Source of the DNA: TPA_inf: Saccharomyces
Taxonomy: Eukaryota
DNA: 64,000 bases
Direction of reading: 5' to 3'
NCBI GenBank assembly: GCA_000146045.2
Contig: BK006944.2
Coordinates: 448,001 to 512,000, forward strand
A program made the position numbers and the translations under genes. Below, in pieces: positions 3,434-35,139 of the stretch (within the stretch, counting starts at the first letter, position 1; every line of letters starts with the position of its first letter). Below the pieces are notes generated by a model. It had not been told where the DNA came from, ran no database searches, and worked only from the letters and a program-made list of their open reading frames with translations.

Positions 3434-3988
3434 ATGGGAGCCGTACTCAGCTGTTGTAGAAACCATTCCGGCGAAGAGAATGAAGCTTTGCTGAGGGAAC
3501 AGCAGGCAGGCTATGGAAGTCAAGGAAACGCAAATGACGAATACGATGCCGAACAAATGCGGTTGAAGGAACACGAACACGAACAGAAACTGCTGGCCAG
3601 GGAACAAGAGTTAAGAGACATTGTTGCAAACACCAACGATAAACTAATAGACATATCGATGATAAACAATAGTGGCATTGTAATTCAAGGGACAGACCTG
3701 CAAGAAGCTCTTGATAAAAGACAACAGGAAGAAGGTGGAGATTCCCGGGAAGACGAAAGGAGTGCAGGTGATGACAACCTCAGTGGGCACTCAGTGCCTT
3801 CAAGCGGATCCGCACAGGCAACTACTCACCAAACTGCACCAAGGACTAATACGTTTACTCTGCTTACATCACCGGATTCAGCGAAAATATCAAAGGAACA
3901 GTTAAAGAAGTTGCACTCTAATATACTAAATGAAATTTTCAGCCAGTCCCAGGTAAACAAACCAGGCCCCTTGACGGTTCCCTTTTAA
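3434..3988 (+). CDS. MEH1: EGO/Ragulator-like vacuolar membrane anchor, 184 aa, with N-terminal MGAVLSCC myristoylation/palmitoylation motif
   Basis: 184-aa ORF. The MGxxxSCC lipidation motif is present. Position is between MRPL13 and RSC4. Confidence 0.85.
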   Translation: MGAVLSCCRNHSGEENEALLREQQAGYGSQGNANDEYDAEQMRLKEHEHEQKLLAREQELRDIVANTNDKLIDISMINNSGIVIQGTDLQEALDKRQQEEGGDSREDERSAGDDNLSGHSVPSSGSAQATTHQTAPRTNTFTLLTSPDSAKISKEQLKKLHSNILNEIFSQSQVNKPGPLTVPF

Positions 3989-4200
3989 TGAACTTTTTGT
4001 ATAACATCATTGGTATACAAGCTTTATAAATAAATGTTAAATAGTTAATGAAATAAAAAATCACATTTGACGAATTCGGAAGACAAGTAGCCCAAGAAAA
4101 AAAACAACAAAAGCATGCTAGAGGATGATGTTTAAAACGACCCTCAGCCTGTTATTACAATAGAGAGCAAACCAAAGAATAATAGATAAAGTACACAGAT

Positions 4201-6078
4201 ATGGTAGTTAAGAAGCGTAAGTTGGCAACTGAGGCCGGTGGCAGTGATGAAAGGCCTAAATACTTGCCGGGAAAACATCCTAAAAACCAAGAGAAAACTC
4301 CGCATGTGGATTATAACGCCCCATTAAACCCTAAATCTGAACTTTTTCTAGATGACTGGCATATACCTAAATTTAATCGATTTATTAGTTTCACTTTGGA
4401 TGTTCTTATCGACAAATACAAAGATATTTTCAAAGATTTCATCAAACTACCAAGTAGGAAGTTTCATCCACAGTATTATTACAAGATCCAGCAGCCAATG
4501 TCTATTAATGAAATCAAGTCAAGAGATTATGAATACGAAGATGGTCCAAGTAATTTTCTTTTGGATGTTGAGCTACTGACAAAGAATTGTCAAGCTTACA
4601 ATGAATATGACAGTTTGATTGTAAAAAACTCCATGCAAGTAGTAATGTTGATTGAATTTGAAGTATTGAAGGCAAAAAATTTGAAAAGAAATTACTTAAT
4701 TAACAGCGAGGTCAAAGCCAAATTACTGCACTATCTTAATAAGCTAGTTGACGCCACGGAAAAGAAAATCAACCAGGCTCTGCTGGGTGCGTCATCTCCT
4801 AAAAACTTAGACGACAAAGTCAAGCTAAGTGAACCGTTTATGGAATTAGTCGATAAAGATGAACTTCCTGAATATTATGAAATAGTGCATAGCCCCATGG
4901 CTTTATCGATCGTAAAGCAGAACCTCGAAATTGGTCAGTATTCCAAGATATATGATTTCATCATTGATATGCTTTTAGTTTTTCAGAATGCTCATATATT
5001 CAATGATCCAAGCGCTTTGATTTACAAAGACGCAACAACTTTAACAAATTATTTTAACTACTTAATACAAAAGGAATTCTTCCCAGAGTTACAGGATTTA
5101 AATGAACGTGGCGAAATTAATTTAGAATTTGACAAATTCGAATTCGAAAACTACTTAGCTATTGGTGGTGGTGGTCCAGCCGCAGCAGGTGCGTTAGCTA
5201 TATCTGCTCTTGATAATGATATTGAGCCAGAATCTAACCGTGAAGATCTTATTGATCAAGCAGATTATGATTTCAATCATTTCGAAGGTCTCGGCAATGG
5301 TTATAATCGTTCTCTCCTAACTGAAGATTATTTACTGAACCCAAACAACTTCAAAAAGTTAATAGCCAAACCGGAAACAGTGCAATCCGAAGTCAAAAAT
5401 GAAAGATCAACGACATCTGATATTGAGAAGACAAACTCCTTAGAGAGCGAACATTTAAAAATCCCCAAATACAATGTTATAAAATCCATGCAAAAAGAAA
5501 TGCAATCACTCTCAGAGCAACACACCATGGAGTATAAGCCCTATAAATTAATACAACAAATTTACATTTTTTCTTCTAAAAATTTGTATTCGCAGGCAAC
5601 TAAGCCTTTACTGGGTTCAAGGCCATCATGCAATCAAAATTGGGTAGAGTATATTTTCAATGGTAATGAATTGAGTCAAAATGAAAACGCTTTCTCCTTC
5701 ATGTTACAACCCATGCAAACTTTTTTAACATTACAGTCTCATTTGACCTCATCATTAAAGGATACAGAGACTTTATTAACCATTAATAAAGAGCCAGTGA
5801 AGTCTAGAACTTCAAATGTAAACAGTAACCTTTCCCAACCTCAGCAACAAGAAAATGATGTTATTGGAAACGATACGAAGCAAGATATAGAAAATTTGAC
5901 AATCGGCGGCGGCAACAATAACGATATTGTTGGTAACGATAATGATAAACGTAATAATATAACCGAAATCTTTGATATTCGCTTATCAGAAGGTTTAAAT
6001 CATTTGATGTTTAGGTGTGAGGACAAAATATCTCATGAAACGGAATTCATGAATTTCTGGATAAATGTCTTACCATGA
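4201..6078 (+). CDS. RSC4: RSC chromatin-remodeller subunit with tandem bromodomains, 625 aa
   Basis: 625-aa ORF. Bromodomain-like blocks (FxxPV...YY...I..PM, second copy ...YYEIVHSPMAL...). Adjacent to FOX2. Confidence 0.85.
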   Translation: MVVKKRKLATEAGGSDERPKYLPGKHPKNQEKTPHVDYNAPLNPKSELFLDDWHIPKFNRFISFTLDVLIDKYKDIFKDFIKLPSRKFHPQYYYKIQQPMSINEIKSRDYEYEDGPSNFLLDVELLTKNCQAYNEYDSLIVKNSMQVVMLIEFEVLKAKNLKRNYLINSEVKAKLLHYLNKLVDATEKKINQALLGASSPKNLDDKVKLSEPFMELVDKDELPEYYEIVHSPMALSIVKQNLEIGQYSKIYDFIIDMLLVFQNAHIFNDPSALIYKDATTLTNYFNYLIQKEFFPELQDLNERGEINLEFDKFEFENYLAIGGGGPAAAGALAISALDNDIEPESNREDLIDQADYDFNHFEGLGNGYNRSLLTEDYLLNPNNFKKLIAKPETVQSEVKNERSTTSDIEKTNSLESEHLKIPKYNVIKSMQKEMQSLSEQHTMEYKPYKLIQQIYIFSSKNLYSQATKPLLGSRPSCNQNWVEYIFNGNELSQNENAFSFMLQPMQTFLTLQSHLTSSLKDTETLLTINKEPVKSRTSNVNSNLSQPQQQENDVIGNDTKQDIENLTIGGGNNNDIVGNDNDKRNNITEIFDIRLSEGLNHLMFRCEDKISHETEFMNFWINVLP

Positions 6079-6351
6079 TGACTATCTCTCTCTTCATAGT
6101 CTTCCCATCATATGCATGTATCTATATACAACCTATATACACTTTGTAATATTATCCATCCTCTTCCTCTATATAGATTAAAACTGTTAATATTACACAT
6201 GACAAAAAAGTTGCGTCCGTAAAGAAAAAGTACTTAAAATGGGTAGGTTAGTTATGTAGGGAAAGATGTATGTAAGGATATGGCTTAACAAAGCTGTTAA
6301 ATGAAAAGAATATAATCGCTATTTTTTATATTATTCAAATCTTTTTTTGTA

Positions 6352-9054
6352 TTATAGTTTAGATTTTGCCTGCGATAGTTTTACAGCGGCGTTATCCAAT
6401 ACAATGACGTTTCTGGTCGTATCAATTGTTTGAAAAACGACAACCGAGCCTTGCTTCCAAGCTTTAACCTTTAGAGTATCACCTGGGAAAACAACATTGG
6501 TAAATCTCACTTTCAACTCCTCATATGGACCATAATGTTCAAACAATGCTTTCGCACTAATACCTAATGTACAAAGCCCATGCAGAATTGGCGTAGGAAA
6601 TTTAACTGCTTTGGCTAGCGTGGGATCGATATGTAAAGGATTGAAATCGCCAGATAACCTGTACAATGCGGCTTGATCTTTATTCGTAGAAATCTCCGCC
6701 TCAAAATCTGGTACCTTTCCATGTGGCACTTCAAAATTTTGGACAGCAAACTTGGCTCTTTTCCCATCCCTCACTTCCTTTTCTGGAGGTACATGTGCGC
6801 CCCTGATGAAGAACGATCCTTCGTTATAAGCTATGAGTTTCTTAGTTTTAATGTCATAAGTTTCGAAGCCACCAACAACTAAAGCGGCTTTACCATTCTT
6901 GTCAAGTACTTGTAAAGGTTTAGCAAGTGTCTTTAGAGTTCCATTACTTGGCATTGTCGGCGTGCAGAGCTTAAAATATTGTTCTCCATGCAGTAACATT
7001 GCATAATTGAAGTTATCGACTAAATTGTCCATAGCTAGTGTGGCAGTAGCTTGCATAAATGGAATGACGGCGAACGTGGGCAAAACTTGGAAGTCTGGAT
7101 CATTCTCGTAGGTGTACTTAAGCTCTTTGCTTGTGCATCCAAGTCCTAAATTGTACAAGATACAATCCTTGGTAGTGTACTTGAATAATCCATCATCCAA
7201 CTCCTTTGAAGAGTGCGCTTTTTGCACGGCTTGCAAGGTTGCCATAGAAGACTCCTCTGTGGAGCTCGGGTTGATAGTGTTGCGACTGAAATCAGTGATG
7301 TGGTTCCAATTTTCTTTAATTTCTTCCGGTTCAATAGTCTCTTTAATAGAAACATAACCGGAACTTCTTTGCCATCTGGTTTGCCCACACCAACCACCGC
7401 CAACTTCGAATAATTGGCCAATAACCCTTCTTCCAGAATACTTTTGTAGTTCTTCAGATGCCAACAAAACAACAAGTGGGGAGACTTGAGATGCATCAAA
7501 GTGGTTTGATAATTCCTTCTCCGAGAATATAGTCTTTGTCATAGCCGTTTCTGCATGAGGAGCGATAACATTAACAATAATTCCTCTCTTGGCACCTTCC
7601 AGTGCAATAGTTTTACTGAATCCTAAAATGGCGGCTTTTGCAGCGGCATAATTGGCCTGTCCAAAATTACCATAAATTCCTGAGGTAGAAGTAGTATTGA
7701 TAATAAATCCAGACTTTTGTTTGGTAAATATTGGCCATACTGCTTTTGACAATGAAAATGTGGAAAAAAGGTGGACTTTCAGGACAGCAAACCATTCCTC
7801 ATCTTTCATTTTTAAAAAAGATTTGTCACGCAAAATACCAGCGTTATTGACCAAGATGTCTACTCTCTGAAACTTACTTATTGCAGTTTGGATAATGAGA
7901 GGAGCTTCGGTGACCACATCATGGGAATCTGGAATGGCTGTGCCTTCACCATATAGTTTATTTATTTCTTCAACAACTGAAAAAGGATCCTTGATGTCAT
8001 TTACAACTACCTTCGCACCGTACCGTGCAAACCAGATTGCATGAGACTTCCCAAGACCACCTCCTGCACCCGTAACTACTACGACTTTGTTGCAAAGCGA
8101 CTTGATTTTCACTGAGCCTTGTTCATTGGGAGGTAATTTTTTTGCTTTGGTGATTAAATCATTATAATCCGAGAGTTGATATGGATGCTGAGTTTTGTTA
8201 AATGGCTTGTCCCTATAGTCTGTGATTTCCTTCCACTTATTTAAAATTGCTTCAGGAGTATATGTCTTGGGGTCTGGATTGAAAATTTGTCCAGAAGACC
8301 TCTCCCATCTGAGCTGTCCAAAGAATCCAGCAGCGAGTTCAAAAATGGAGTTTGACACTTTCGTACTTTCGTGTGTCAAATAGAGTACTAAGGGAACAAT
8401 TTTTTCCGGTCCTAACTGTTTCAAGATATGTGGTGGTAACACGTTTTCTGTCATACGTGATCTAGCCAATGGCGCAATTGAATTAACATTAATGTTGTAT
8501 TTGGCACCCTCCTTCGCGAGGGTTTCCGCCAAACCAACTAAGCCCATTTTAGCTGCTGAATAATTAGCTTGACCAAAATTTCCAAATAGACCGGCAGGGG
8601 AAGCGGTGTTAATGATTCTACCAAATTTCTGAGAGCGCATATAAGGCCAAGCAGCACGCGATAGCTTATAGCCACCTGTCAAATGAACATCTACCACAGA
8701 TGCAAACTCACGTTCTGTCATCTTTGCAAATGAAACATCCCTTAATATTCCAGCGTTGTTAATTAGTACATCAACCCTGCCGAATTCTTTTATAGCCGTT
8801 TCAATTATTTTCTCTCCATTTTCATTAACAGAGTCGTAATTTGCCACAGCTATACCTCCGGCTTTTTTTATCTCATCCACCACTAAGTCTGCAGCTTTGG
8901 AGTTATGTCCTGAACCACCCAAAGTGCCACCTAGATCATTGACGACCACTTTTGCACCTCTGCTTGCGTAAGCTAGTGCATACACCTTACCTAAGCCCCC
9001 TCCAGCGCCCGTGATTACAACAACTCTATCTTTGAAGGATAAATTTCCAGGCAT
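6352..9054 (-). CDS. FOX2: Peroxisomal multifunctional beta-oxidation enzyme (two SDR dehydrogenase domains plus hydratase 2), 900 aa, with C-terminal SKL PTS1
   Basis: 900-aa ORF. Two GxGxxG Rossmann motifs (VVVITGAGGGLG and VVVVTGAGGGLG). MaoC-like hydratase C-terminus. Ends in ...AKSKL. An ORE pair lies upstream. Confidence 0.92.
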   Translation of the reverse strand: MPGNLSFKDRVVVITGAGGGLGKVYALAYASRGAKVVVNDLGGTLGGSGHNSKAADLVVDEIKKAGGIAVANYDSVNENGEKIIETAIKEFGRVDVLINNAGILRDVSFAKMTEREFASVVDVHLTGGYKLSRAAWPYMRSQKFGRIINTASPAGLFGNFGQANYSAAKMGLVGLAETLAKEGAKYNINVNSIAPLARSRMTENVLPPHILKQLGPEKIVPLVLYLTHESTKVSNSIFELAAGFFGQLRWERSSGQIFNPDPKTYTPEAILNKWKEITDYRDKPFNKTQHPYQLSDYNDLITKAKKLPPNEQGSVKIKSLCNKVVVVTGAGGGLGKSHAIWFARYGAKVVVNDIKDPFSVVEEINKLYGEGTAIPDSHDVVTEAPLIIQTAISKFQRVDILVNNAGILRDKSFLKMKDEEWFAVLKVHLFSTFSLSKAVWPIFTKQKSGFIINTTSTSGIYGNFGQANYAAAKAAILGFSKTIALEGAKRGIIVNVIAPHAETAMTKTIFSEKELSNHFDASQVSPLVVLLASEELQKYSGRRVIGQLFEVGGGWCGQTRWQRSSGYVSIKETIEPEEIKENWNHITDFSRNTINPSSTEESSMATLQAVQKAHSSKELDDGLFKYTTKDCILYNLGLGCTSKELKYTYENDPDFQVLPTFAVIPFMQATATLAMDNLVDNFNYAMLLHGEQYFKLCTPTMPSNGTLKTLAKPLQVLDKNGKAALVVGGFETYDIKTKKLIAYNEGSFFIRGAHVPPEKEVRDGKRAKFAVQNFEVPHGKVPDFEAEISTNKDQAALYRLSGDFNPLHIDPTLAKAVKFPTPILHGLCTLGISAKALFEHYGPYEELKVRFTNVVFPGDTLKVKAWKQGSVVVFQTIDTTRNVIVLDNAAVKLSQAKSKL

Positions 9055-9304
9055 GGCTTACTCAAATAAGAAATAAATCGAATGTTTGTTTAGCTTCGTA
9101 TATGTGTACCTTGCTTAATAAATTAGCTGATAAGTCCTTCTACCTTTCAACACTGGGAGTAAAGCAGCCAGAAACGACTTCTTATATAATTTCTTTACTT
9201 GTCTTCCTTGTTTTTTTACCCCATCCTCCTTTGCTTTCTTGCTGATGTTGATCCCCGTTGGAGTAAAAATTGGCAAATAACCGCCGAGAGTTCTAGTACG
9301 GATA

Positions 9305-9325
9305 CGGCGTTAACAAATTTCCCCG
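9305..9325. promoter_or_regulatory. Oleate response element (ORE) CGGN3TNA-N9-CCG (CGGCGTTAACAAATTTCCCCG), Oaf1/Pip2 site, about 250 bp upstream of the FOX2 ATG
   Basis: Exact match to the ORE consensus CGGNNNTNA(N9-12)CCG, read directly from the sequence. Confidence 0.7.
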
Positions 9326-9336
9326 TCGATCACTTT

Positions 9337-9358
9337 CGGACTTAAAACTAGGCTTCCG
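9337..9358. promoter_or_regulatory. Second ORE (CGGACTTAAAACTAGGCTTCCG), 11 bp from the first
   Basis: CGG-N3-TNA-N10-CCG consensus match, read directly from the sequence. Confidence 0.65.
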
Positions 9359-9817
9359 GAACCACACAAGATTAAGAAATTAAGGCTTACAACAAGACTT
9401 GAGAGAAGTGATCGAATATTAGGATACTCTTTTTGTTTATGTAAACAATTACCGTAACAGACTCGGGAGAATCAGAAGGGAAGCTGCCTCTAGATATCAA
9501 AATGAACGAAGTAAAAATATCGAAGCATAAACAAAACGATAAAAACTTTAGAAACTATTGATTCTCTTCCAGCCTTGCCTTAGCTCAAGTTCCTGAATAT
9601 TCTTGTTTTTTATCGCTACGTACTCAATTTTTAATGCACCATAACTACTCAACATAACGGGTTAGTGAAATCTACTGTGCTGCTAGAATAGTATCACGTA
9701 CAGTAGTTTAATTGATAGCGTAAATTGAAAAATCAGCTAAATAAATTGTCATCAATTTTACAATAGCAGAAATGTAGCGATTAATAATTCAATAGGAAAT
9801 GAAAGGGACTTTAAATT

Positions 9818-9906
9818 CAGAAATAGGTGAATTTATGATGATTGTTGGGATTTCTTACTAGTAATTTGAATAGTAGTCACATGATCGTTGATTATTATTC
9901 CAATAC
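9818..9906 (-). mobile_element. Internally deleted Ty1/Ty2 delta LTR remnant, minus orientation
   Basis: 9821-9858 (aaataggtgaatttatgatgattgttgggatttc) resembles the reverse complement of the delta 3' end (gaaatgggtgaatgttgagataattgttgggattcc). 9891-9906 (attattattccaata) resembles the reverse complement of the delta 5' end (ggatttttattccaaca). Confidence 0.4.
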
Positions 9907-10100
9907 AAATTTTGTGTAAAGTCACTCTTTCCCCTTCTGAATGGTGCATTCGTGAAAGAATTTTCGATATTGTTGTATTGTAAACTAGGAATCAAAGGTA
10001 TCGTTCTATAATGAGAGAAGTATTAAAGGCACGCACTGATCGATTGTATCAGATATGACTATAGCTTTAGTGTTTAGAGTCATCTCTTCATACATATAAA

Positions 10101-10139
10101 TGTTGCAATAAAAATCAACTAATATCTATGTTGTCATAT
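10101..10139 (+). mobile_element. 5' fragment of an older delta LTR in plus orientation. It is interrupted by the next element and resumes at 10472 to about 10505.
   Basis: tgttgcaataaaaatcaactaatatctatg matches the delta start tgttggaatagaaatcaactatcatctact. After the inserted LTR the sequence catataaagtttagaaagatgac matches delta catatacggtgttagaagatgac. Confidence 0.55.
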
Positions 10140-10471
10140 TGAGAAATGGGTGAATGTTGAGATAATTGTTGGGATTCCATTGTTGATAAAGGCTATAATA
10201 TTAGGTATACAGAATATACTAGAAGTTCTCCTCTCCGGTCTAGGAATCCCCAAAATGGAATCTATATTTCTACATACTAATATTACGATTATTCCTCATT
10301 CCGTTTTATATGTTTCATTATCCTATTACATTATCAATCCTTGCACTTCAGCTTCCTCTAACTTCGATGACAGCTTCTCATAACTTATGTCATCATCTTA
10401 ACACCGTATATGATAATATATTGATAATATAACTATTAGTTGATAGACGATAGTGGATTTTTATTCCAACA
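10140..10471 (-). mobile_element. Intact solo delta LTR (Ty1/Ty2 class, 332 bp) in minus orientation, flanked by a 5-bp CATAT target-site duplication (10135-10139 and 10472-10476)
   Basis: Near-identical over its whole length to the reverse complement of the delta LTR consensus as I recall it (TGAGAAATGGGTGAATGTTGAGATAATTGTTGGGATTCC ... GATAGTGGATTTTTATTCCAACA). Has TG..CA termini and a direct CATAT repeat on both flanks. Confidence 0.85.
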
Positions 10472-10556
10472 CATATAAAGTTTAGAAAGATGACATAAAG
10501 ATTAACTTAATACATGACTGGGTATACTTGAATTCTAAAATTTTCAACAAATAAGT

Positions 10557-10670
10557 GGTTGTTTGGCCGAGCGGTCTAAGGCGCCTGATTCAAGAAATAT
10601 CTTGACCGCAGTTAACTGTGGGAATACTCAGGTATCGTAAGATGCAAGAGTTCGAATCTCTTAGCAACCA
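10557..10670 (+). tRNA. tL(CAA)K: tRNA-Leu (anticodon CAA) with a 32-nt intron (10595..10626)
   Basis: GGTTGTTTGGCCGAGCGGTCTAAGGCGCCTGATTCAAG[intron]CTCAGGTATCGTAAGATGCAAGAGTTCGAATCTCTTAGCAACCA. The acceptor stem pairs GGTTGTT with AGCAACC, followed by discriminator A. A- and B-box features are present. LTR debris lies 85 bp upstream. Confidence 0.92.
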
Positions 10671-10673
10671 TAT

Positions 10674-10686
10674 TTTATATTTTTTT
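10674..10686 (+). terminator. Pol III terminator T-tract downstream of tRNA-Leu
   Basis: ttttatatttttt, with a T6 run 11 nt after the tRNA 3' end. Confidence 0.7.
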
Positions 10687-10923
10687 ATATTGTGTTCAAC
10701 AATGAACAATAATGACGAATAATCCAGAATGATATAAACGTCCATGAATAAAAGTCCGTTATAATCATATATAATTGATGCATACCGTACGCTATTAGTT
10801 CTCTTTTGTTGGTTGCTTTTGAAGATTTAATTATGATATCATTAACCAGTCTAAAAAATTACTACAATTCGCCAAGAATATTTAAGATATGGTTGAGAGA
10901 TCCCAACATAATTACTGACAGAC

Positions 10924-13239
10924 TTACTGGTCGTCTTCATCACTTTCAACATATTTAGGTGTTTGGTACTTCTTTGTATTTATTTCATTGTCATCCACAT
11001 CCAGCATTGGTTTTCCATTAGAATTTCCAGCTGGTCCATGACTTGTTTTGAAATTAATTTTTTTAACTTGCACGTTCCTCGAATCAGAATCATCATCCGA
11101 ATCATCTGAGGAAGAGCTATCCAATGAAGATTCAAGTGACATGGAAGAAGAAGAAGAAGGTGAAGAATGCGACCTGGTAACCTTGACTTTCTTGAGCTGC
11201 GGTGTTCTTTCTAAACTGGACGGTATCGCTTGGCCATTTTTTCTTTTTCCAGGAGTTGAATTCATAACTGGCAACTTGGGTGAGACTTGTTCTTGTTCCT
11301 GAGCCGTACTATTAGAAGTTGCCTCCACTTTGTCTTTACTATTATCAACAGGATCTCTCATTAATTTGACTACTTTTATGGTCGAAGCTGCATTTGGCGG
11401 TTTCCCAGCATTGGCAAAAATATCTTTTAGGGATCTATTCCCCATATTTCTTTTTCTTTTAAACTCTATAACTTTCGATCCAACATCATCAGTTTTTCGT
11501 TTCACTTTTATTTTACCAAATTTTGCGAATTTCTCACCGGAAATAATGGTATTGGGATCATCAAAGTGCTTTGTTTCCAGACTTACCCCTTTTGAAGTTA
11601 TGGATTTGGGTTTATCTTTCTTCATTATTCCAAATTTTCCGTAATATGGTTCCGTAATACTATTCCTTTTTTGGACCTTAGTTTCCCCAGTTGGCTTGAA
11701 CCTATTTAGTTTCCGAATAGTTTCTTGTATTTTTACGTCTTTTGCATGCGAAGTAGATGACGCAGCACCCAATGATTTATCAGGAAACTCCTTCTCAACA
11801 AGTCGAAATAGGGCTTCCTTACCTTGACTTTGATGTAACCGATTATTCAATTCTTTTTCAGGAAAAAAGGGAGGAGAAACAACATTTTTGGTACTTTGAG
11901 TACTTTGTACTGCATTTTCAATATCACTGTTGAATGAAACGCTATCCAAGTCGGAATTGATATCCCGAAATCCCATCGATGCCTTCTTAGAATTGTTGAT
12001 AAACGAATCCGCACGATCATTATCGGTTTCATTAAAATCCTCTTCATCTGAAAATGCTTCTATCCTTCTACAATTCTCACCTATATCTTTGTCGTTCAAT
12101 GGCAGATCATCACCTTTTTTGTTTTGAACTTTAATTTCTAAGGAACTCTTCCTGGGACTATGAGCACCACTAGAGGGGTTAGAATATTGTATATGCATAT
12201 CAGAATTAGTATGAGAAGTAGTGCTCAATTGGAAGTCGGTATCAATCGAATCAAACGAAATTTGAGGGGAGTTTTCATCTGCGGGTTCATAATCAGCATC
12301 TTCTGACGAATTGCGTAAAAGATCTAAATCCTTTGATTCGGCCCTTTTAGCGCCATCATTTTTCTGTTGTTGAGTGGATGAAGGTATATTTTCTTTATTG
12401 TTATCACTCCCTTGCGTTACAACTCCCTCTTTAGCACGAGCGTGATCTTTTACGTCTTTGTGTACATTTGATGCCACTACTGTGGAAGTAAGTGGCATGG
12501 GACACTTTTCTTTATTCAGTGCATCATACTTGCTTGCAAGCGGTAGAATTTCGTTCATTAGCGGCGTTGATACTCTTGATTTATTAATGAAGTTATTCTT
12601 GAGCGAGCTTTTAGCTATTAGATGCATTGTATCTTTATTTGATATAGAAGATAAGTCTTCCTTAGAGATCTTTTTTCTCTTTTCAGTAACGATGGATTTT
12701 GTGGATGGCTTGTTGTCCTGCCGTCTCCGCTGTCTTGCCAATTGTAAAAGTGAAATATGTTGATTTCTACTCCAGTCTAATTCATCTTTTAAAATTACCA
12801 AAACCACACCATCATTTTCAAATACGTCTTTTATTATAAATTCAGAGTCCAAATCACAACCATGCCTATCTTGTAGAGATACGATTTCAATGGATTCTTT
12901 GAAATTTGGATAAAGTCTATCAAATTTAGTTAAAATTTCATTAGATAGTTGTAAAAGGGTATTGTCACCGTCCGTAAAATGTAAAAACTTTTTACAATTC
13001 GGGAGGTAGTTAATGAAATCACTACTACGATTCGACTGAATAGAATTTTGCGAAGACGGGCTCGTAGGAGAGGGGTCGCTACAGTTATTGATACTGTTGT
13101 TGTGCGTAATTATATCTTCATTATACTGGACCATAGGAGACACTGATTGTGGAGTATTCAAGCGTGCTTCGAGAAATGTGATAATATCTTGAGCACTTGG
13201 CGGCACCAGTACAATCTGTAACCTCCACATTTTTATCAT
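10924..13239 (-). CDS. TOF2: Nucleolar rDNA-silencing / Cdc14-release protein (Net1 paralog), 771 aa, with Ser/Asp-rich acidic C-terminus
   Basis: 771-aa ORF. Low-complexity S/D-rich tail. Position is between tL(CAA)K and YKR011C. Confidence 0.85.
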   Translation of the reverse strand: MIKMWRLQIVLVPPSAQDIITFLEARLNTPQSVSPMVQYNEDIITHNNSINNCSDPSPTSPSSQNSIQSNRSSDFINYLPNCKKFLHFTDGDNTLLQLSNEILTKFDRLYPNFKESIEIVSLQDRHGCDLDSEFIIKDVFENDGVVLVILKDELDWSRNQHISLLQLARQRRRQDNKPSTKSIVTEKRKKISKEDLSSISNKDTMHLIAKSSLKNNFINKSRVSTPLMNEILPLASKYDALNKEKCPMPLTSTVVASNVHKDVKDHARAKEGVVTQGSDNNKENIPSSTQQQKNDGAKRAESKDLDLLRNSSEDADYEPADENSPQISFDSIDTDFQLSTTSHTNSDMHIQYSNPSSGAHSPRKSSLEIKVQNKKGDDLPLNDKDIGENCRRIEAFSDEEDFNETDNDRADSFINNSKKASMGFRDINSDLDSVSFNSDIENAVQSTQSTKNVVSPPFFPEKELNNRLHQSQGKEALFRLVEKEFPDKSLGAASSTSHAKDVKIQETIRKLNRFKPTGETKVQKRNSITEPYYGKFGIMKKDKPKSITSKGVSLETKHFDDPNTIISGEKFAKFGKIKVKRKTDDVGSKVIEFKRKRNMGNRSLKDIFANAGKPPNAASTIKVVKLMRDPVDNSKDKVEATSNSTAQEQEQVSPKLPVMNSTPGKRKNGQAIPSSLERTPQLKKVKVTRSHSSPSSSSSMSLESSLDSSSSDDSDDDSDSRNVQVKKINFKTSHGPAGNSNGKPMLDVDDNEINTKKYQTPKYVESDEDDQ

Positions 13240-13634
13240 TTACTTATTTGAACCAAACACCAAGGAGGGCAAAGGATATTATAAGAAATGTGGCAAAAGA
13301 TTGGCGTATTTATTGAATGCTTGTATAATTGGGTAGCTAACCAAAAATGACTTGTTTTCCTTCTTCAGCGAAACTAATAAATAAACAAACAAACAAATTA
13401 GGACCATCTTGCATTTGAGATCTGAAGAATATGAAAAAAATTATATAACAGTATCGTATAATGCGACTTTTTTTCGTGATGCCTATGTAACAATAGTAGA
13501 GAAAAAACAGGTCACATTTCTATAAATGATTGAATAATTGGTTCTATATACGTACATACTTTTGGAGTTTTACTTTTATTCTCTTGATTTAATGGATGTA
13601 GATGCTATAAAAAGACATGTTTTCCCGGAAATAG

Positions 13635-14696
13635 TTAAAATGATATTTTGCCATTTTTATGCGGATGATGGCTATTAGGAGGGTTTTTAGTGATTTTTTT
13701 TTTTTCCACAAGCTGAAATTTTCGAGGTCTTTGTCTCGACCAGGCTCTCAAGTCAAAAGTTTCATAGTCTTCGGCCATCAATTTAAAATAGCTTTCAAAA
13801 TTTGACTTGATCAGATCGTTTGTAGCACTTGAATGCATGAAATTCACGTTTGGTTTAGACTCAGGACCTTTATAGATGTAGTCTGTCGAGACAGCCTCAT
13901 CATCGGTACTCAAAGATGAAGGAGACAGCGAATTTACCGGAGAAAAATGTCTTGATTCGCTTTCCAGAGATGCGGAAGGCTCATTGTTTGAGCACGATGC
14001 CAAACTATTTTCCTTAAGATTTTGTTCCTGGATGTTATACTTTTTCTTCATCGAGTTATGATAATTTTTTAAAGTTGTTGTCAAAAGTCGCTTATTCGAT
14101 AAAACTTTGGTCTTTATGATAGCAATAGAAACAATATTTTTGAAGTTATCGAAAACCTCCATGTTGAACTGTTCCTGTTTTTTCTTTTGTTTGGCAATGC
14201 TTTGACATATTTTATCATATTGAGACCAAAATTGTTCAACGTTTAGTTTTGAGAGATCTCTATTCATTTTTTCTAGACAATTTTGTAACCAGGCCCGTTT
14301 ATCATAATTTTTAAATCGTTGATCATTCTGGAAAACCTCCTTCCAGGAAGTGTTCTTAACCACGTTAGCGTCGTTATCCACGTACAACAAGGCAGACAAC
14401 TTATTTAATTGCCAACGACCATCAGATTTCCAAATGAAAAAGGTGTCACTTATTTCTTCATATTCGAGAATGTAGAAATGGGGAATACAATTCGGCTTCA
14501 AATATGCGGGTGCACAATCTATCTTCAAATTTTCTGTTATGGTCTCAGAAGTTTGCAACTCAATCCCGTACAATTCTTGAATAGAATGCACGAACTTGAT
14601 AACCTGAGTTAAAGTGAGACCTTCCTTAATACAGGTCAATTTAACACGTGGTTGTTCTTCACCAGCGTATAAGTAAACGGTTTCTAACTTGGACAT
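13635..14696 (-). CDS. Uncharacterised protein YKR011C, 353 aa
   Basis: 353-aa ORF at the expected position and of the expected length. Confidence 0.8.
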   Translation of the reverse strand: MSKLETVYLYAGEEQPRVKLTCIKEGLTLTQVIKFVHSIQELYGIELQTSETITENLKIDCAPAYLKPNCIPHFYILEYEEISDTFFIWKSDGRWQLNKLSALLYVDNDANVVKNTSWKEVFQNDQRFKNYDKRAWLQNCLEKMNRDLSKLNVEQFWSQYDKICQSIAKQKKKQEQFNMEVFDNFKNIVSIAIIKTKVLSNKRLLTTTLKNYHNSMKKKYNIQEQNLKENSLASCSNNEPSASLESESRHFSPVNSLSPSSLSTDDEAVSTDYIYKGPESKPNVNFMHSSATNDLIKSNFESYFKLMAEDYETFDLRAWSRQRPRKFQLVEKKKITKNPPNSHHPHKNGKISF

Positions 14697-15260
14697 GGTT
14701 TCCTTTCTTTGTACTTGGTATTTCTTCTTCTTTTTCTAGCTGTCTGTATGAGTACTTAACTGTAACAGAATAGTAATGGGTTCAGGCTAAATCTCTTTAA
14801 TTATGGCACCTTTATGCTGATATAAATCCCTATACATTTCTTAGGGGTGTGTTTTGGTTTTTGGTCTCATAGTTTTGACAGCACGTTGGAACGCCACTCA
14901 TGCCTTAAAAGGCCGGGTAATGATTTATAGTCCAATTATATCACAGCACTACAAGACGTCAAAAATTCACGGCGGCAAAAGGTCTGTAACTACCTAAACA
15001 TTAAAAGCCTTTGAGCTATAAATCATTATGTACACTGAGAATGCCACATGCTAAAACAAGGAAGTTTTCAGCGAAGTAGCACATTAACTGACCACTCAAT
15101 AGAAAGAAAACAGAAAGTGGAATGGATGGCCACTTTCATGTTATCAGTGGTGATTACTTGATGACAAAATAACGCTATTCGAGAGCGAGCTATAATTCTT
15201 GACCAACTGGCTCGACCTTCTTCGTCATACTGTAGATCAAAATTCTACCATTACTGGATT

Positions 15261-15283
15261 CTTTTTTTTTTTTTTTTTTTTTT
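15261..15283. repeat. poly(dT)23 homopolymer tract in the YKR011C/PRY2 divergent promoter
   Basis: A run of 23 T read directly. poly(dA:dT) tracts exclude nucleosomes. Confidence 0.9.
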
Positions 15284-15581
15284 GGGCTAGCTATGAACGT
15301 TTCCTAGTCCCGCTCACGCATTCTAGTTCTGCATTGGGTAAAAGAAAGCATATCATTAAGCGGCAGTTTCGGGTCGTTCTAGCCTCGAGCAAAACGAAGC
15401 TCAGCTCGCCTCTTTCACTATCATCCTGTGCTCACGTCCATGCGCATTCTTGGCAATTCTGCAGAGATCTCTCATCTGGGTCTTAGCGGTTCTCCGCACC
15501 CTGGCGATGTGCTTCGAGAACGTCTTTGTTCATCACATAGACTGCACTGCACTGCGCCATCATCTCGATCGATCGCGAGAC

Positions 15582-15603
15582 TTTCGCGGCGACATTCGCG
15601 AAA
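15582..15603. promoter_or_regulatory. Inverted pair of CGCGAAA (SCB/MCB-type, SBF/MBF) motifs: TTTCGCG-gcgacatt-CGCGAAA, about 360 bp upstream of PRY2
   Basis: Both heptamers match CRCGAAA and are read directly from the sequence. Confidence 0.45.
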
Positions 15604-15738
15604 TGCCAAATGAAATCGAGCCGGCCTCGTGAAAAGGTGTAAAAAAAGAAAACGCATCACTGAAATGGACCCCGTTATGAAACGAATGAGAGATCTGCCC
15701 ATAGATCATCTTTCCTATAGCGGGAATAAACATGTGTG

Positions 15739-16128
15739 CTATTTACAGTACATTTCGTGTATCTCACGCACTTCTCTATATGTAATGTTTTTGAAACATA
15801 GACGTCGTTCAAAGGCAATGCTTTTGATCTTTGTATATATATATGCTTGTCGCAGAGTGTTACATATTGCTGTGATGGATCTGTTGGCTCTTGGTATCAT
15901 CGTTCCTCGAAACAGCCCATCATAAAACAATACCATTCCTTTAATAAAACTTACAAAGATGAAATTTTCTAAAGTCTCACTACTGGCCGCATCTGCATCT
16001 GTCGCTTTATCTGCCCCAGTTGCTGTGACTGTCACGCAACATGTCCACCAAGCTGCCACTGTAGTGGTACAAGGTATAGTTCGTGTAGAAAATGGCCAGA
16101 CTCTAACGACGTTCATTACCAAGGGCAC
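15739..16128 (-). other. Dubious ORF antisense to and overlapping the PRY2 5' region (corresponds to YKR012C). Probably non-coding.
   Basis: 129-aa ORF of Cys/Thr-rich low-complexity composition that overlaps the PRY2 start on the opposite strand. Confidence 0.3.
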
Positions 16129-16948
16129 TCAAACGGCTTCTGCTAGTCCCGTTGCCACAACATCAGCTCCTATTGTGGTTGCTAATGCTCAAGTGGACAG
16201 CATAGCTACTTCCGTTATCCAAGAAAGCGCTGTCGTGGCTGAATCTGCAACATTTGAAGAATCCTCTACAGAAACATCTGAAGCATTTTCTACAGCAACT
16301 GCAACCATACAAGCGGTGCAAACCTCCGCAAGTGCCACACAGGATGATGTAACCACAACTTTAACATCTTCAACACAACCTACCAGCACAACTACTCCAA
16401 CAACCACTACCACTAGCCCAACCACTACCACTAGCCCAACTACTACCGCTAGTCCAACTACTACTGCTAGCCCAACCACCGCTACCACCACTCAATCTAC
16501 CGCCTCAAGCACTCAATCCTCAAGCTCCGATTTCTCAACGTCAATGGTTAACGAACACAACACTAAAAGGGCGTTGCACAAGGATACCGGTTCTTTGACA
16601 TGGTCTGACACACTAGCAACATATGCACAAAACTACGCTGACTCCTACGATTGTTCAGGCAACCTAGTCCACTCCGGCGGTCCATACGGTGAAAACTTGG
16701 CACTTGGTTACGGTACGACCGGCTCTGTTGATGCCTGGTATAACGAAATTACCAGCTACGACTATTCCAACCCTGGTTTTAGTGAAAGCGCAGGTCACTT
16801 CACCCAAGTCGTATGGAAGGGAACTTCTGAAGTTGGTTGCGGTTTGAAATCTTGCGGTGGCGAATGGGGCGATTACATCATTTGTTCCTACAAAGCCGCT
16901 GGTAATGTCATTGGTGAGTTTGCTGACAACGTTATGCCATTAGCTTAA
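15959..16948 (+). CDS. PRY2: Secreted CAP/PR-1 family sterol-binding protein, 329 aa: signal peptide, Ser/Thr-rich linker, C-terminal CAP domain
   Basis: 329-aa ORF. N-terminal MKFSKVSLLAASASVALSAP is signal-like. CAP motifs present: HYTQVVW-like (GHFTQVVWKGT) and CGENL (YGENLA). Confidence 0.9.
   Translation: MKFSKVSLLAASASVALSAPVAVTVTQHVHQAATVVVQGIVRVENGQTLTTFITKGTQTASASPVATTSAPIVVANAQVDSIATSVIQESAVVAESATFEESSTETSEAFSTATATIQAVQTSASATQDDVTTTLTSSTQPTSTTTPTTTTTSPTTTTSPTTTASPTTTASPTTATTTQSTASSTQSSSSDFSTSMVNEHNTKRALHKDTGSLTWSDTLATYAQNYADSYDCSGNLVHSGGPYGENLALGYGTTGSVDAWYNEITSYDYSNPGFSESAGHFTQVVWKGTSEVGCGLKSCGGEWGDYIICSYKAAGNVIGEFADNVMPLA
16406..16477. repeat. In-frame 18-bp minisatellite (4 copies of ACTACCACTAGCCCAACC, encoding TTTSPT) within the PRY2 Ser/Thr-rich linker. 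Degenerate copies extend over about 16393-16495.
   Basis: Direct tandem repeats read from the sequence. They create the spurious antisense ORF 16189..16491. Confidence 0.85.
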
Positions 16949-17174
16949 TCACTGAATTTAGCGAATACATGGGTATGGACATGAACAGCAATGGGCACTG
17001 TTCCTTCTCTTACATTTCTCTTTTATAGTTTCAATTTTTATTATACACTAAGGATTCTTCTTTTCTAGGGTACGCAAATTAAATGCAAGCAAGATCATAT
17101 AACATTGTCATAGTCTCATGCATGGTAAATAGGGTGAACGAAAAAAATTGGGAGATCTTGCCGACGGCTACGTA

Positions 17175-17210
17175 TATATATATATATATATAAATATATA
17201 TATATATATT
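17175..17210. repeat. (TA)n microsatellite in the PRY2/YPT52 3' intergenic region
   Basis: tatatatatatatatataaatatatatatatatat. Confidence 0.9.
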
Positions 17211-17366
17211 CATGTATACTGTATATGTACAATCATATATAAAGTTACTCTTCCCTTTTCTTTTTTTTTTTACATTATTACGTATATACTGCTTTATTAT
17301 CGGAAAGTAGCAGTTTAATTAAAGCAACTTCTGTTGTTTTTCCTCTAAAACACAAATCATAGGATA

Positions 17367-18071
17367 TCAACTGCAACAAGATGTTGGATCATTTGTGGAT
17401 GGCCTTTGCAAATTAATGTCTACTTGTCCGTTATTGCCTCCACCGATTTGTCTATTTTGCTTAGAGAGAATTTCGTCTTTCTTTAAATCGTATAATTTTT
17501 CACCAATATCTTGAAAAATTTCCTTAACCCCTTCACCTGTCTTAGCACTAACTTCTCGGAACAGCAACCCTTGTTCTTGTGCGTACTGTTTCGCTTCTTC
17601 AGTGCTAATTGCTCTTACTTTTTGTTCTTCATCTCCACCTTCGTTTGAATCTGGGCTTGTCTCAGTGCTAGGCGTTTCTTGACATAAATCCACTTTGTTT
17701 CCCAGTAAATAAATAACCAAGTCGTCGTCGCCTACCTTATTTTTCAGCTCATCAACCCAGTTCCTTGCCTTTTGTAGTGAATCTTCCTGCGTAATGTCAT
17801 AAACAACTAATGCTGCATTAGCGTTTCTATAATACATTGGTGCCAATGACTTGTATCTTTCTTGACCAGCAGTATCCCAGATTTCAAATTTTATAACGAC
17901 ATCCTTTGTTTCATTACCATCGTTTGGGTGAATAGTGATTGATTGAGATAAAAAAGCAGCACCAATCGTACTTTCACGTAGTTCATCGAATGTATCCTTA
18001 ACAAAACGATGAACAATGGAAGATTTACCCACGGATGAGTCACCCAATAAAACTAGTTTAAATTGCAACAT
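17367..18071 (-). CDS. YPT52: Rab5-family endosomal GTPase, 234 aa, C-terminal CCS prenylation motif
   Basis: P-loop [14 protein letters not shown] and NKVD motifs present. Ends ...CCS. 234 aa. Confidence 0.9.
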
Positions 18072-31233: not shown

Positions 31234-33981
31234 ATGCTCCAATTCAATACAGAAAATGATACTGTAGCTCCAGTGTTTCCCATGGAGCAAGATATAAATG
31301 CAGCACCTGATGCCGTCCCACTGGTGCAGACAACAACACTACAAGTCTTTGTAAAGCTTGCCGAACCCATAGTGTTTTTAAAAGGATTTGAAACTAACGG
31401 ACTGTCTGAAATAGCCCCCAGTATCTTACGAGGATCTCTTATCGTCAGGGTGTTGAAACCGAATAAATTAAAAAGTATATCGATAACCTTCAAAGGAATA
31501 TCCAGAACAGAGTGGCCGGAAGGTATACCACCGAAGAGAGAAGAATTTTCAGATGTTGAAACTGTTGTCAATCACACATGGCCATTTTATCAGGCGGATG
31601 ACGGCATGAATTCTTTCACCTTAGAACATCACAGCTCAAATAATTCGTCCAATCGCCCATCTATGAGCGATGAAGATTATCTACTTGAAAAAAGCGGTGC
31701 TTCAGTATATATCCCACCAACCGCTGAACCCCCTAAAGATAATAGCAATCTAAGTCTGGATGCCTATGAGCGCAACTCATTGTCATCCGATAATTTGAGT
31801 AACAAGCCAGTATCAAGTGATGTTTCCCATGACGACAGTAAACTGTTGGCTATTCAAAAGACACCATTACCATCATCTAGTCGAAGAGGATCGGTACCGG
31901 CAAATTTTCACGGTAACTCTTTGTCACCTCATACCTTCATATCTGATTTGTTTACAAAAACATTCAGTAATAGTGGCGCTACTCCAAGTCCTGAGCAAGA
32001 GGATAACTATCTTACACCATCCAAAGATTCTAAAGAAGTTTTTATTTTTCGACCGGGCGATTATATTTACACTTTTGAACAGCCAATATCGCAATCTTAT
32101 CCAGAAAGTATAAAAGCCAATTTTGGTTCCGTGGAGTATAAACTGTCAATAGACATAGAGAGGTTTGGCGCATTCAAATCAACTATACATACTCAATTAC
32201 CCATCAAAGTCGTAAGGCTTCCTTCTGATGGATCCGTAGAAGAGACTGAAGCTATTGCAATTTCCAAGGACTGGAAAGATCTTCTTCATTATGACGTGGT
32301 AATTTTCTCGAAAGAGATCGTTTTGAATGCATTTTTACCCATCGATTTCCATTTCGCTCCTCTAGATAAAGTTACTCTGCATCGTATTAGAATTTATCTA
32401 ACAGAGTCTATGGAATACACTTGTAATAGTAATGGAAATCACGAGAAGGCTCGTAGATTAGAGCCAACTAAAAAGTTTCTGTTGGCTGAACATAACGGTC
32501 CTAAACTGCCTCATATACCAGCTGGTTCGAATCCTTTGAAGGCTAAAAATAGAGGGAACATCCTCTTGGATGAAAAATCCGGCGATCTAGTTAACAAAGA
32601 TTTTCAGTTCGAGGTGTTTGTCCCAAGCAAGTTTACAAACAGTATACGGTTACACCCTGATACAAATTATGATAAAATCAAAGCCCACCATTGGATAAAA
32701 ATTTGCCTTCGTCTTTCCAAGAAGTACGGGGACAATAGAAAACATTTCGAAATAAGTATTGATTCTCCAATCCATATTTTAAATCAACTATGCTCACACG
32801 CGAATACTTTGCTACCGAGCTACGAGAGTCATTTCCAGTATTGTGATGAAGATGGTAATTTCGCACCAGCAGCAGATCAACAAAATTACGCAAGTCATCA
32901 TGATTCCAATATTTTCTTCCCAAAAGAAGTTCTTTCGTCTCCCGTTCTTTCACCTAACGTGCAGAAGATGAACATTAGAATACCGTCTGATCTTCCAGTA
33001 GTGCGTAATAGAGCTGAAAGCGTAAAGAAAAGCAAGTCAGATAATACCTCCAAGAAGAATGATCAAAGTAGCAATGTCTTCGCATCCAAACAGCTGGTCG
33101 CAAACATTTATAAGCCCAATCAGATTCCAAGAGAATTAACTTCTCCTCAGGCGTTACCATTATCGCCCATCACCTCACCAATTCTCAATTACCAACCATT
33201 ATCAAACTCCCCGCCTCCAGATTTTGATTTTGATCTAGCTAAGCGCGGCGCAGCCGATTCTCATGCTATTCCTGTGGATCCTCCATCATATTTTGATGTA
33301 TTAAAGGCCGATGGGATTGAATTGCCATACTACGATACAAGTTCATCTAAAATTCCTGAACTAAAACTAAACAAATCTAGAGAGACATTGGCCAGCATTG
33401 AGGAGGACTCATTCAATGGTTGGTCTCAAATTGATGACTTATCCGACGAAGATGACAATGATGGCGATATAGCATCTGGTTTCAACTTCAAGCTGTCAAC
33501 CAGTGCTCCGAGTGAGAACGTTAATTCACACACTCCTATTTTGCAGTCTTTAAACATGAGTCTTGATGGGAGAAAAAAAAATCGTGCCAGTCTACACGCA
33601 ACATCAGTGTTACCTAGTACAATAAGACAGAACAATCAGCATTTCAATGACATAAACCAGATGCTAGGCAGTAGTGACGAAGATGCCTTTCCCAAAAGCC
33701 AATCATTAAATTTCAATAAGAAACTACCAATACTTAAAATTAATGATAACGTCATACAATCAAACAGCAATAGTAATAACAGAGTTGATAATCCAGAAGA
33801 TACAGTGGATTCTTCAGTCGATATTACAGCATTTTATGATCCAAGAATGTCATCAGATTCCAAATTTGATTGGGAGGTAAGCAAGAACCATGTTGACCCA
33901 GCAGCCTACTCGGTTAACGTTGCTAGTGAAAACCGTGTACTGGACGACTTTAAGAAAGCATTTCGCGAAAAGAGAAAATAA
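31234..33981 (+). CDS. ALY1: Alpha-arrestin family Rsp5 adaptor, 915 aa. An in-frame ATG lies 6 codons further upstream at 31216.
   Basis: 921-aa ORF. Arrestin-like N-terminal region. PPxY motif (VDPPSYFD). Confidence 0.8.
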
Positions 33982-34170
33982 GTACATTATTTTCATTCTC
34001 CGACAGAATTGCTACCATTTTACTTTGTGTCCTGTGATTCAATAGTGTACAATATATTGGACATTTTATAGTATACAAATATACACCATCAATCTATACA
34101 TCCATATCACTTGTCGTAAAGATATCCCTTTTTAATAGTACAGCGATTAAAAAAATAACATGATTAACGT

Positions 34171-35139
34171 TCAGTTACCAATGAGCTTATTTATTAGGCT
34201 TGCTTTAGATTTTTCCAAGTCAATTTTTGTTTTTTCTAACGCTTGCAACCTCATCTCAACCTTCTTCCTTTGCAAGCAGATCTTCGAAACCATCTCGTTT
34301 ATTCTCTCAATGCTGTTCCCACTTTCATCATCGTCTGGGAAAAGTACCGGTAAGGGCGTGATGATTTTCTCATTCGATTTGTTTATATTTCCTTTGCTTA
34401 AAAGCTGGGTTTCCCATTCTTCATTAGTTCTGTAGGGCACTTCATTTATGGCCTTCTCTATAATCTTTCTTTTAGAATCCTTTTGAATAGCAATTTGATT
34501 ATCCGTGAGGGCTAGCATTTCGTCTTGAAAGCCTTGCATTTCATCGTCACTGAAGTTCGTAATCTCCTTTTCATTGTTACGTTTCAGACCACCATTTAAT
34601 CTTATTGTCTCCATAATTTCGCGTTTATCCTCACTGTCCAACAATTTTACATAATCTCTTTCTGTTGTAACATCACTCTCACTAATTTTCCTTCTAGATA
34701 ATGACTTCTGTGCTTTCAGTTTTGCAATTTCTCCTCGGGTTGGTATACTACTAATGTGCTCACCTTCGGAGCTACTGCCAGCCTCTGAAGAATCACTTAA
34801 TAGATGATGATTCCCCTCCATCAAGTCCTCCATATTGAGAATTAGCAAATCATCTTTGTTTCGCGTCGATGCATTGGTATTTTTCTTTGAATGGTAAAGA
34901 TCTTCATAATGCGAATTATCCTCCTTTATTGCTTGTTCGCCATCAAAGGTAATGTCGCGCTTAGGAACTTTTTTAAACTTTATTGGTTGTAATACACAAA
35001 TGTCGTTGTCATCATCTTCAGAATCGTTCGACACTAGGGGCTTAATTTGCTGCATTGGCTTATGCGCAGAACCATCAATTCCAACCTCCTCAGGAGAACC
35101 ACTTGGTAACCTAATTTTATTTCTTTTCTTGATCGCCAT
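34171..35139 (-). CDS. NTR2: NTR (spliceosome disassembly) complex component, 322 aa
   Basis: 322-aa ORF of the expected position and length. Confidence 0.85.
   Translation of the reverse strand: MAIKKRNKIRLPSGSPEEVGIDGSAHKPMQQIKPLVSNDSEDDDNDICVLQPIKFKKVPKRDITFDGEQAIKEDNSHYEDLYHSKKNTNASTRNKDDLLILNMEDLMEGNHHLLSDSSEAGSSSEGEHISSIPTRGEIAKLKAQKSLSRRKISESDVTTERDYVKLLDSEDKREIMETIRLNGGLKRNNEKEITNFSDDEMQGFQDEMLALTDNQIAIQKDSKRKIIEKAINEVPYRTNEEWETQLLSKGNINKSNEKIITPLPVLFPDDDESGNSIERINEMVSKICLQRKKVEMRLQALEKTKIDLEKSKASLINKLIGN

Follow-up and report, generated by a model that had tools for sequence, protein, structure and literature searches.

The GC- and CpG-rich island upstream of PRY2 in Saccharomyces cerevisiae is very probably the upstream activating region of that gene, dependent on SBF, together with GC-rich distal promoter DNA, with no separate gene detectable in it. 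The SBF part of the island has already been published and the explanation is an ordinary one, though the composition is statistically exceptional. The experimentally defined SCB elements of PRY2 can now be placed at exact coordinates, with their conservation across the genus and one decayed site, and both the 'CpG island' and the spurious open reading frames (ORFs) perceived from the sequence alone find an explanation. Beyond this clean annotation the significance is small, the leftover question of the GC content of the distal 170-270 bp being of modest interest, with the caution that in yeast a cluster of CGCG-core sites on a GC-rich distal promoter can mimic a gene relic or a non-coding RNA (ncRNA).

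The window, by which we mean the whole 64-kb stretch of DNA analysed, comes from S. cerevisiae chromosome XI, and the island (15290-15660) lies inside the 1262-bp intergenic region between the divergent genes FPT1 and PRY2. The minus-strand ORF at 13635-14696 shows 100% identity to S. cerevisiae YKR011C, now named FPT1, and the qPCR primers published for PRY2 find their matches at 16161-16183 and 16284-16306, both within the plus-strand ORF at 15959-16948. The genes around the island are:

10924-13239, minus strand: TOF2, flanking gene
13635-14696, minus strand: FPT1
15959-16948, plus strand: PRY2 coding sequence, 329 aa, recognised by the CAP domain in its orthologues and by the qPCR primer matches
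17367-18071, minus strand: YPT52, flanking gene

An earlier note, made from the letters of this DNA, had drawn attention to the island as atypically rich in G+C and CpG, and the numbers bear this out. Its GC fraction is 0.501, where 371-bp windows across the 64 kb average 0.376 (sd 0.040), and its 30 CpG compare with an average of 10.4 in such windows; none of them, those in coding DNA among them, exceeds the island in either measure. Measured against the other intergenic windows the excess amounts to z = 4.95 for GC and z = 6.9 for CpG (roughly 5 and 7), with the next largest values elsewhere being 0.434 and 18 respectively. A GC fraction like that of other promoters, which the note had named as an outcome that would speak against its claim, is thus not seen in comparison with the intergenic DNA of the window. 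The CpG abundance described there over some 370 bp stands as a total, but the excess over base composition does not extend so far. The observed/expected ratio (o/e) is 1.30 for the whole island and 0.80 for the whole window; within the island, 15560-15660 contains 13 CpG with an o/e of 2.19, as against 1.00 for 15290-15559. CpG beyond that expected from composition is limited to the 3' 100 bp, where CGCG-core binding sites are dense and produce the local excess, and the rest of the island is simply GC-rich.

With 371 bp, GC 0.501 and o/e 1.30, the island falls within the definition of a CpG island given by Gardiner-Garden and Frommer (length >200 bp, GC >=0.5, CpG o/e >0.6). It resembles the vertebrate type in these numbers and in its promoter location, and differs in that escape from methylation-driven CpG loss is inapplicable to it. 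To our knowledge S. cerevisiae has no cytosine DNA methylation, and the numerical status is for this reason biologically meaningless here.

A seven-species alignment of 4.8 kb, built from the S. cerevisiae locus and its counterparts in S. paradoxus, S. mikatae, S. kudriavzevii, S. arboricola, S. uvarum and S. eubayanus, served for comparison, with the fraction of invariant columns as the measure. The segment is orthologous in all seven, which agrees with the rejection of a foreign insertion in the earlier note, and the conservation check proposed there separates the CpG-dense end of the island (0.42) from the neutral intergenic middle (0.12). The invariant fractions are:

13635-14696: FPT1 coding, 0.59
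14951-15289: intergenic middle, 0.12
15290-15429: 5' part of the island, 0.11
15430-15559: middle part of the island, 0.26
15560-15660: SCB cluster of the island, 0.42
15661-15958: PRY2 proximal promoter, 0.46
15959-16948: PRY2 coding, 0.50
17367-18071: YPT52 coding, 0.69

Constraint starts near 15460 and extends to the TATA element at 15834-15844, with 15460-15860 about as conserved as coding DNA, whereas 15290-15429 evolves almost neutrally yet remains GC-rich. The island can accordingly be described, upstream of its SCB cluster, as two stretches, and it is accompanied by two simple repeats:

15262-15283: (dT)22 tract at the 5' edge of the island, an S. cerevisiae-specific expansion
15290-15459: distal GC-rich part, GC about 0.48-0.5, CpG o/e about 1, weakly conserved
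15460-15559: conserved GC-rich block, including TTCGAGAA at 15513-15520, with 30-40% invariant columns in 40-bp windows
15541-15555, plus strand: ACTGC x3 microsatellite, present as x2 in S. paradoxus and x1 in the other species

The T tract adjoins the 5' edge of the island, as had been noted, but consists of 22 T and not 23, and at the same position the other six Saccharomyces species have at most about 5-7 T. Likewise the pentamer repeat described as CTGCA x3 is real, but reads as ACTGC x3, which is equal to CTGCA x2 followed by CTGCG; its copy numbers in the other species identify it as a recent slippage expansion. A GCG insertion, in CTTTCGCG-GCG-AC, is specific to S. cerevisiae in the same way as the T22 tract and the ACTGC expansion, and these three changes sharpen the visual contrast which the earlier note had picked up. 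The sequence strings that it quoted are all present in the sequence.

The CpG-dense core of the island is the already characterised Swi4/SBF site cluster of PRY2, and of the readings offered in the earlier note it is the regulatory module which is supported, and was in fact already known. The SCB elements of this promoter are:

15572-15578: ATCGCGA, SCB variant found by motif search, single copy in the PRY2 promoter
15582-15588, minus strand: SCB CGCGAAA (TTTCGCG on the plus strand), motif match
15597-15603, plus strand: SCB CGCGAAA within the invariant block TTCGCGAAATGCCAA, 7/7 species
15628-15634, plus strand: decayed SCB, CGTGAAA in S. cerevisiae, CRCGAAA in 6/7 species
15753-15759, minus strand: SCB CACGAAA (TTTCGTG on the plus strand), in the proximal promoter outside the island, invariant in 7/7 species

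The positions, clustering and conservation of these sites are direct observations. The matches to CRCGAAA at 15582(-), 15597(+) and 15753(-) place three in 178 bp, compared with 18 in the 64 kb, a density about 60 times the background of the window. Two properties by which SBF targets are recognised are found here, namely clustered SCB elements upstream of the gene and sites kept by selection, the latter seen in the retention of 15597 and 15753 in all seven species and of 15628 in six. The site at 15582(-) is less stable, being found at the same position and strand only in S. cerevisiae, S. paradoxus and S. mikatae; CRCGAAA occurs on the plus strand at 15585 in S. mikatae and S. kudriavzevii, and S. 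arboricola, S. uvarum and S. eubayanus have no SCB near 15582-15588. At 15628 the SCB is intact in all six relatives; a derived C>T change at 15630 has inactivated it in the S. cerevisiae lineage alone, an instance of binding-site turnover inside a functional cluster. Outside the genus, in Torulaspora globosa, a single SCB lies 256 bp upstream of the PRY gene, and a GC island is lacking.

This assignment matches a substantial literature. Ferrezuelo et al. (2010) place PRY2 third in their ranking of SBF targets, crediting it with 4 CRCGAA motifs and with support from ChIP (PMC2911115; the ChIP-chip support is given in Table 2 of that paper), and the four CRCGAA matches that we count in the PRY2 promoter equal their number. 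PRY2 is also classified as an SBF gene in PMC4894574. Both of these sources note its G1 peak, as does PMC6765203, where the peak is accompanied by a rearrangement of nucleosomes at the promoter. Hendler et al. treat PRY2 as a model SCB promoter and have shown, in anti-Swi4 ChIP, enrichment of the PRY2 promoter, and the dependence of binding and periodicity on the ATCGCGA and CGCG sites (PMC5448814). Changing ATCGCGA to AACGCGT in the endogenous promoter lowers Swi4 binding and expression, the change of CGCG to CAAG eliminates both the binding of Swi4 and periodicity through the cell cycle, and PRY2, among the top 10 SBF-activated genes, loses its periodicity in the swi4 deletion as well as in the SCB core mutant (PMC5448814). 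That source gives no coordinates for its mutations; the mutated sites probably correspond to 15572-15578 (and 15596-15601), an equation that depends on motif uniqueness, since ATCGCGA occurs once in the PRY2 promoter.

When set beside other SBF target promoters (CLN2, PCL1, TOS6, SVS1), PRY2 shares several CRCGAAA/TCGCGA elements within about 60 bp, SCBs located 200-390 bp upstream of the ATG and conserved across Saccharomyces, and published Swi4 ChIP, swi4-deletion dependence, a G1 peak and loss of periodicity in a site mutant. Nothing essential is different, PRY2 itself being a textbook member of the group; what distinguishes the S. cerevisiae promoter is that one ancestral SCB (15628) has decayed and that the GCG insertion and ACTGC slippage have added G+C.

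Further elements can be predicted in the PRY2 promoter, the first of them within the island:

15445-15450, plus strand: CATTCT, putative match to the Tec1 TCS consensus, kept in 5/7 species
15678-15684, plus strand: TGAAACG, putative PRE-like (Ste12) motif in the invariant block GGACCCCGT..TGAAACGAATG, 7/7 species
15714-15723, minus strand: CCTATAGCGG, putative Mcm1-type CC-N6-GG, within TTTCCTATAGCGGGAAT, 6/7 species
15792-15798, plus strand: TGAAACA, putative consensus Ste12 PRE, with TGAAACR in 7/7 species
15834-15844, plus strand: TATATATATAT, conserved PRY2 TATA element, about 115-125 bp upstream of the ATG

From these motifs Ste12 may bind at 15678 and 15792, Tec1 at 15445 and Mcm1 at 15714, and the TGAAACR and CATTCT sites probably supply pheromone and filamentation-MAPK input. 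PRY2 is known as an fMAPK/Ste12-dependent gene, with expression at 0.28 of wild type in a ste12 deletion (PMC6162559), and its mRNA responds to alpha-factor (PMC5448814), with both of which the predicted Ste12 and Tec1 motifs agree. PRY2 shares with Ste12/Tec1-responsive promoters the conserved TGAAACR at 15678 and 15792, the CATTCT at 15445 and STE12-dependent mRNA, and differs in that the sites here are predicted from short motifs.

The binding of SBF in G1 and the inactivation of Whi5 by Cln-CDK are established SBF biology, backed for this promoter by PMC5448814 and PMC2911115. In the mechanism that we propose for PRY2, SBF (Swi4-Swi6) binds the SCB cluster at 15572-15603 and the site at 15753 in G1, relief of Whi5 repression by Cln-CDK then lets SBF activate transcription, and this proceeds from the TATA element at 15834-15844, some 230-270 bp downstream of the SCB cluster, to give the G1 peak of PRY2. 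The Ste12 and Tec1 sites probably add MAPK inputs, and the 5' two-thirds of the island (15290-15560) would be GC-rich distal promoter DNA without a product of its own.

A different origin for the island, as a decayed gene relic or an unannotated small protein gene, was suggested by its several overlapping stop-free frames, and the frames reported at 15428..15613, 15450..15632 and 15472..15702 do exist as listed ORFs. Automatic gene callers moreover find ORFs of 137 aa in S. uvarum and 143 aa in S. mikatae in the orthologous intergenic DNA. When ORF co-linearity is followed across the seven species, however, the open frames prove to differ from each species to the next in reading frame, in strand and in how far they reach, and the indels within the island have lengths that are not multiples of 3 (13, 2, 1, 11, 7, 14 bp and more between S. 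uvarum and S. eubayanus). Frames are open on both strands simultaneously, as is predicted at 50-58% GC because stop codons, which are A/T-rich, become depleted. None of six S. cerevisiae ORFs nor the S. uvarum 137-aa ORF gave a Pfam match above the cut-off, the best having E 0.041 and 14 bits against a cut-off of 25; a blastn comparison of the island with the 64-kb window, a narrower form of the paralogue check across the yeast genome that the earlier note had proposed, returned no second copy; and in T. globosa, whose lineage split off before the whole-genome duplication, the PRY and FPT1 homologues lie next to each other in divergent orientation, no gene intervening. The S. uvarum and S. mikatae ORFs are composition artefacts, coding signals are absent, and the reading as a relic or small gene fails on the shifting frames, the indels, the Pfam search and the T. 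globosa synteny; we consider it extremely improbable. As an observation on these species, both strands of the intergenic region in S. uvarum and S. eubayanus carry stop-free frames that reach 227 codons, and the 137-aa ORF of S. uvarum, which was called by a metagenome gene caller, is not conserved even in the sister species S. eubayanus.

The proposal that the island encodes a structured ncRNA has a single point in its favour, which is that over 15530-15689 the consensus energies fall below those of column-shuffled controls. In sliding RNAalifold comparisons these were the only windows with low z-scores (-4.2 and -3.5 on the plus strand, -2.2 on the minus strand). The consensus helix responsible pairs TTCGCGA with TCGCGAA and GCCA with TGGC, with no compensatory pairs (0/23) and a covariation term that is a penalty, and we regard the signal as a DNA-site artefact because it is the repeated palindromic SCB cores that pair, without covariation. 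Elsewhere the structure conservation index in the seven-species alignment is about 0 over most of the island, including all of 15250-15450. The fold comparison with shuffled controls that had been suggested gave non-significant RNAfold z-scores of +0.50 and -0.39 for the two strands, a search of 14000-17000 with Rfam 15 found zero matches in the island at E<=10, and a search of the whole 64-kb window at Rfam gathering thresholds likewise found zero there. With Rfam, RNAfold, RNAalifold and covariation all negative, a structured RNA gene has almost no probability in our judgement.

An unstructured transcript that starts in or crosses the island, whether a promoter CUT, SUT or XUT or an upstream isoform of PRY2, is less easily dismissed, as long divergent yeast promoters often produce non-coding transcripts. 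It is nonetheless unlikely. Neither an Rfam family match nor a thermodynamic or comparative structure signal accompanies it, the conservation is block-wise, as for factor binding sites, and literature searches on the FPT1-PRY2 interval brought up no report of a transcript, CUT or SUT between the two genes, and nothing relevant for YKR012C.

Returning to the reading of the island as PRY2 promoter DNA, what the SCB cluster does not account for is the GC-richness of the distal part, which is found in seven species despite turnover. The orthologues of the island are GC-rich in 7/7 species, at 0.44-0.58 compared with 0.39-0.45 for the surrounding 4.8 kb, and across the ~270 bp of 15290-15559 the sole assigned site is the TCS-like hexamer. 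The sharply bounded island is a feature of S. cerevisiae, since the middle region beside the island orthologue reaches a similar GC content in S. arboricola, S. uvarum and S. eubayanus. In S. uvarum and S. eubayanus the entire PRY2-FPT1 intergenic region has 50-52% GC and the island orthologue 58%.

High GC favours nucleosome occupancy and a poly(dT) neighbour is expected to be depleted, both being intrinsic nucleosome preferences, and it is likely from its composition that the distal GC-rich DNA favours occupancy beside the T tract and the factor sites. The strong nucleosome positioning put forward in the earlier note did not hold up in its rotational sense, as the ~10-bp periodicity of WW (AA/TT/TA/AT) dinucleotides is absent from the island, with a spectral power of 2.44 against a window mean of 4.15; this places the island in the lower quarter, 79% of window segments scoring at least as high.

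One explanation for the distal part is that 15290-15560 and the T tract form a selected chromatin element in which composition, not sequence, is under constraint, acting as a nucleosome-favouring block that would separate the FPT1 and PRY2 promoters and gate access to the SCBs. This would be compatible with the SBF explanation of the 3' part, and we hold it as a tentative possibility. It draws on the orthologues being GC-rich in all seven species while only 11% of columns in 15290-15429 are invariant, on the cell-cycle-dependent nucleosome changes reported at the PRY2 promoter (PMC6765203), and on the polarised substitutions, which on the S. cerevisiae and S. paradoxus lineages together are equal in number, 14 W>S and 14 S>W. 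Mutation in yeast is AT-biased, and because of this an excess of S>W would be expected at 50% GC. The absent WW periodicity, the restriction of the T tract to S. cerevisiae and the lack of a sharp block in S. arboricola, S. uvarum and S. eubayanus all count against it, and the substitution counts are too small for a test that could tell selection on composition from gene conversion or drift. In its fuller form, selection on composition would have kept 15290-15560 GC-rich in all Saccharomyces, so insulating FPT1 from PRY2 and making access to the SCBs dependent on remodelling recruited by SBF, a proposal that we find doubtful; if true, the distal part would be a compositional cis-element without a conserved motif.

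The same GC-richness could instead have arisen neutrally, through GC-biased gene conversion, if the wide divergent promoter holds a hotspot of meiotic recombination. Yeast meiotic recombination hotspots are found in promoters, and GC is raised over a broad and poorly conserved stretch, reaching 0.50-0.52 across the intergenic region of S. uvarum and S. eubayanus. The excess of W>S substitutions that would be expected is, however, absent, with 9 W>S vs 6 S>W in S. cerevisiae and 5 vs 8 in S. paradoxus, and we judge this explanation very unlikely.

Several minor observations concern the surroundings of the island. In the FPT1 promoter a block at 14820-14920 is strongly conserved (45-57% invariant columns) and includes TTCTTAGGGGTGTG (AGGGG, STRE-like, 14843), AACGCCACTCAT and, at 14913-14920, an invariant Reb1-type CCGGGTAA with its TTACCCG core at 14914-14920. 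A second, isolated block with 35-40% invariant columns lies at 15180-15240, just upstream of the T tract and amid the fast-evolving intergenic middle; it reads GCGAGC..AATTCTTGRCCA..GGCTCGAC..CGTCAT and gives a weak, non-significant alifold signal (z -1.9). No exact match to the 11-bp ACS of an ARS (WTTTAYRTTTW) occurs in 14697-15958. Downstream, the convergent intergenic region between PRY2 and YPT52 has a TA-rich, self-complementary, low-complexity stretch at 17156-17244 which gives many weak matches to miRNA families of Rfam, all far under their gathering scores, and an snR76-like match at 16970-17033, just downstream of PRY2, is noise (16.9 bits against a gathering score of 55, in a search without truncation).

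Further away in the window, four more CGCGAAA matches fall within 900 bp at 33958-34865, among them a palindromic TTTCGCGAAA (33961-33970). Their positions, in the 3' end of a long ORF and within the following one, make a promoter cluster improbable. An intron-containing tRNA gene at 10557-10670 on the plus strand scores 46.1 bits with Rfam and is unreported by ARAGORN; by inspection it looks like a tRNA-Leu with anticodon CAA and an intron of about 32 nt. In T. globosa the order over 3592-14878 is YPT52-like, SCP160-like, PRY and FPT1-like, followed by a 1203-aa ORF without a Pfam match, which corresponds to TOF2 of Saccharomyces by position alone. This pre-duplication order shows that SCP160 was lost between YPT52 and PRY2 from the copy on S. 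cerevisiae chromosome XI.
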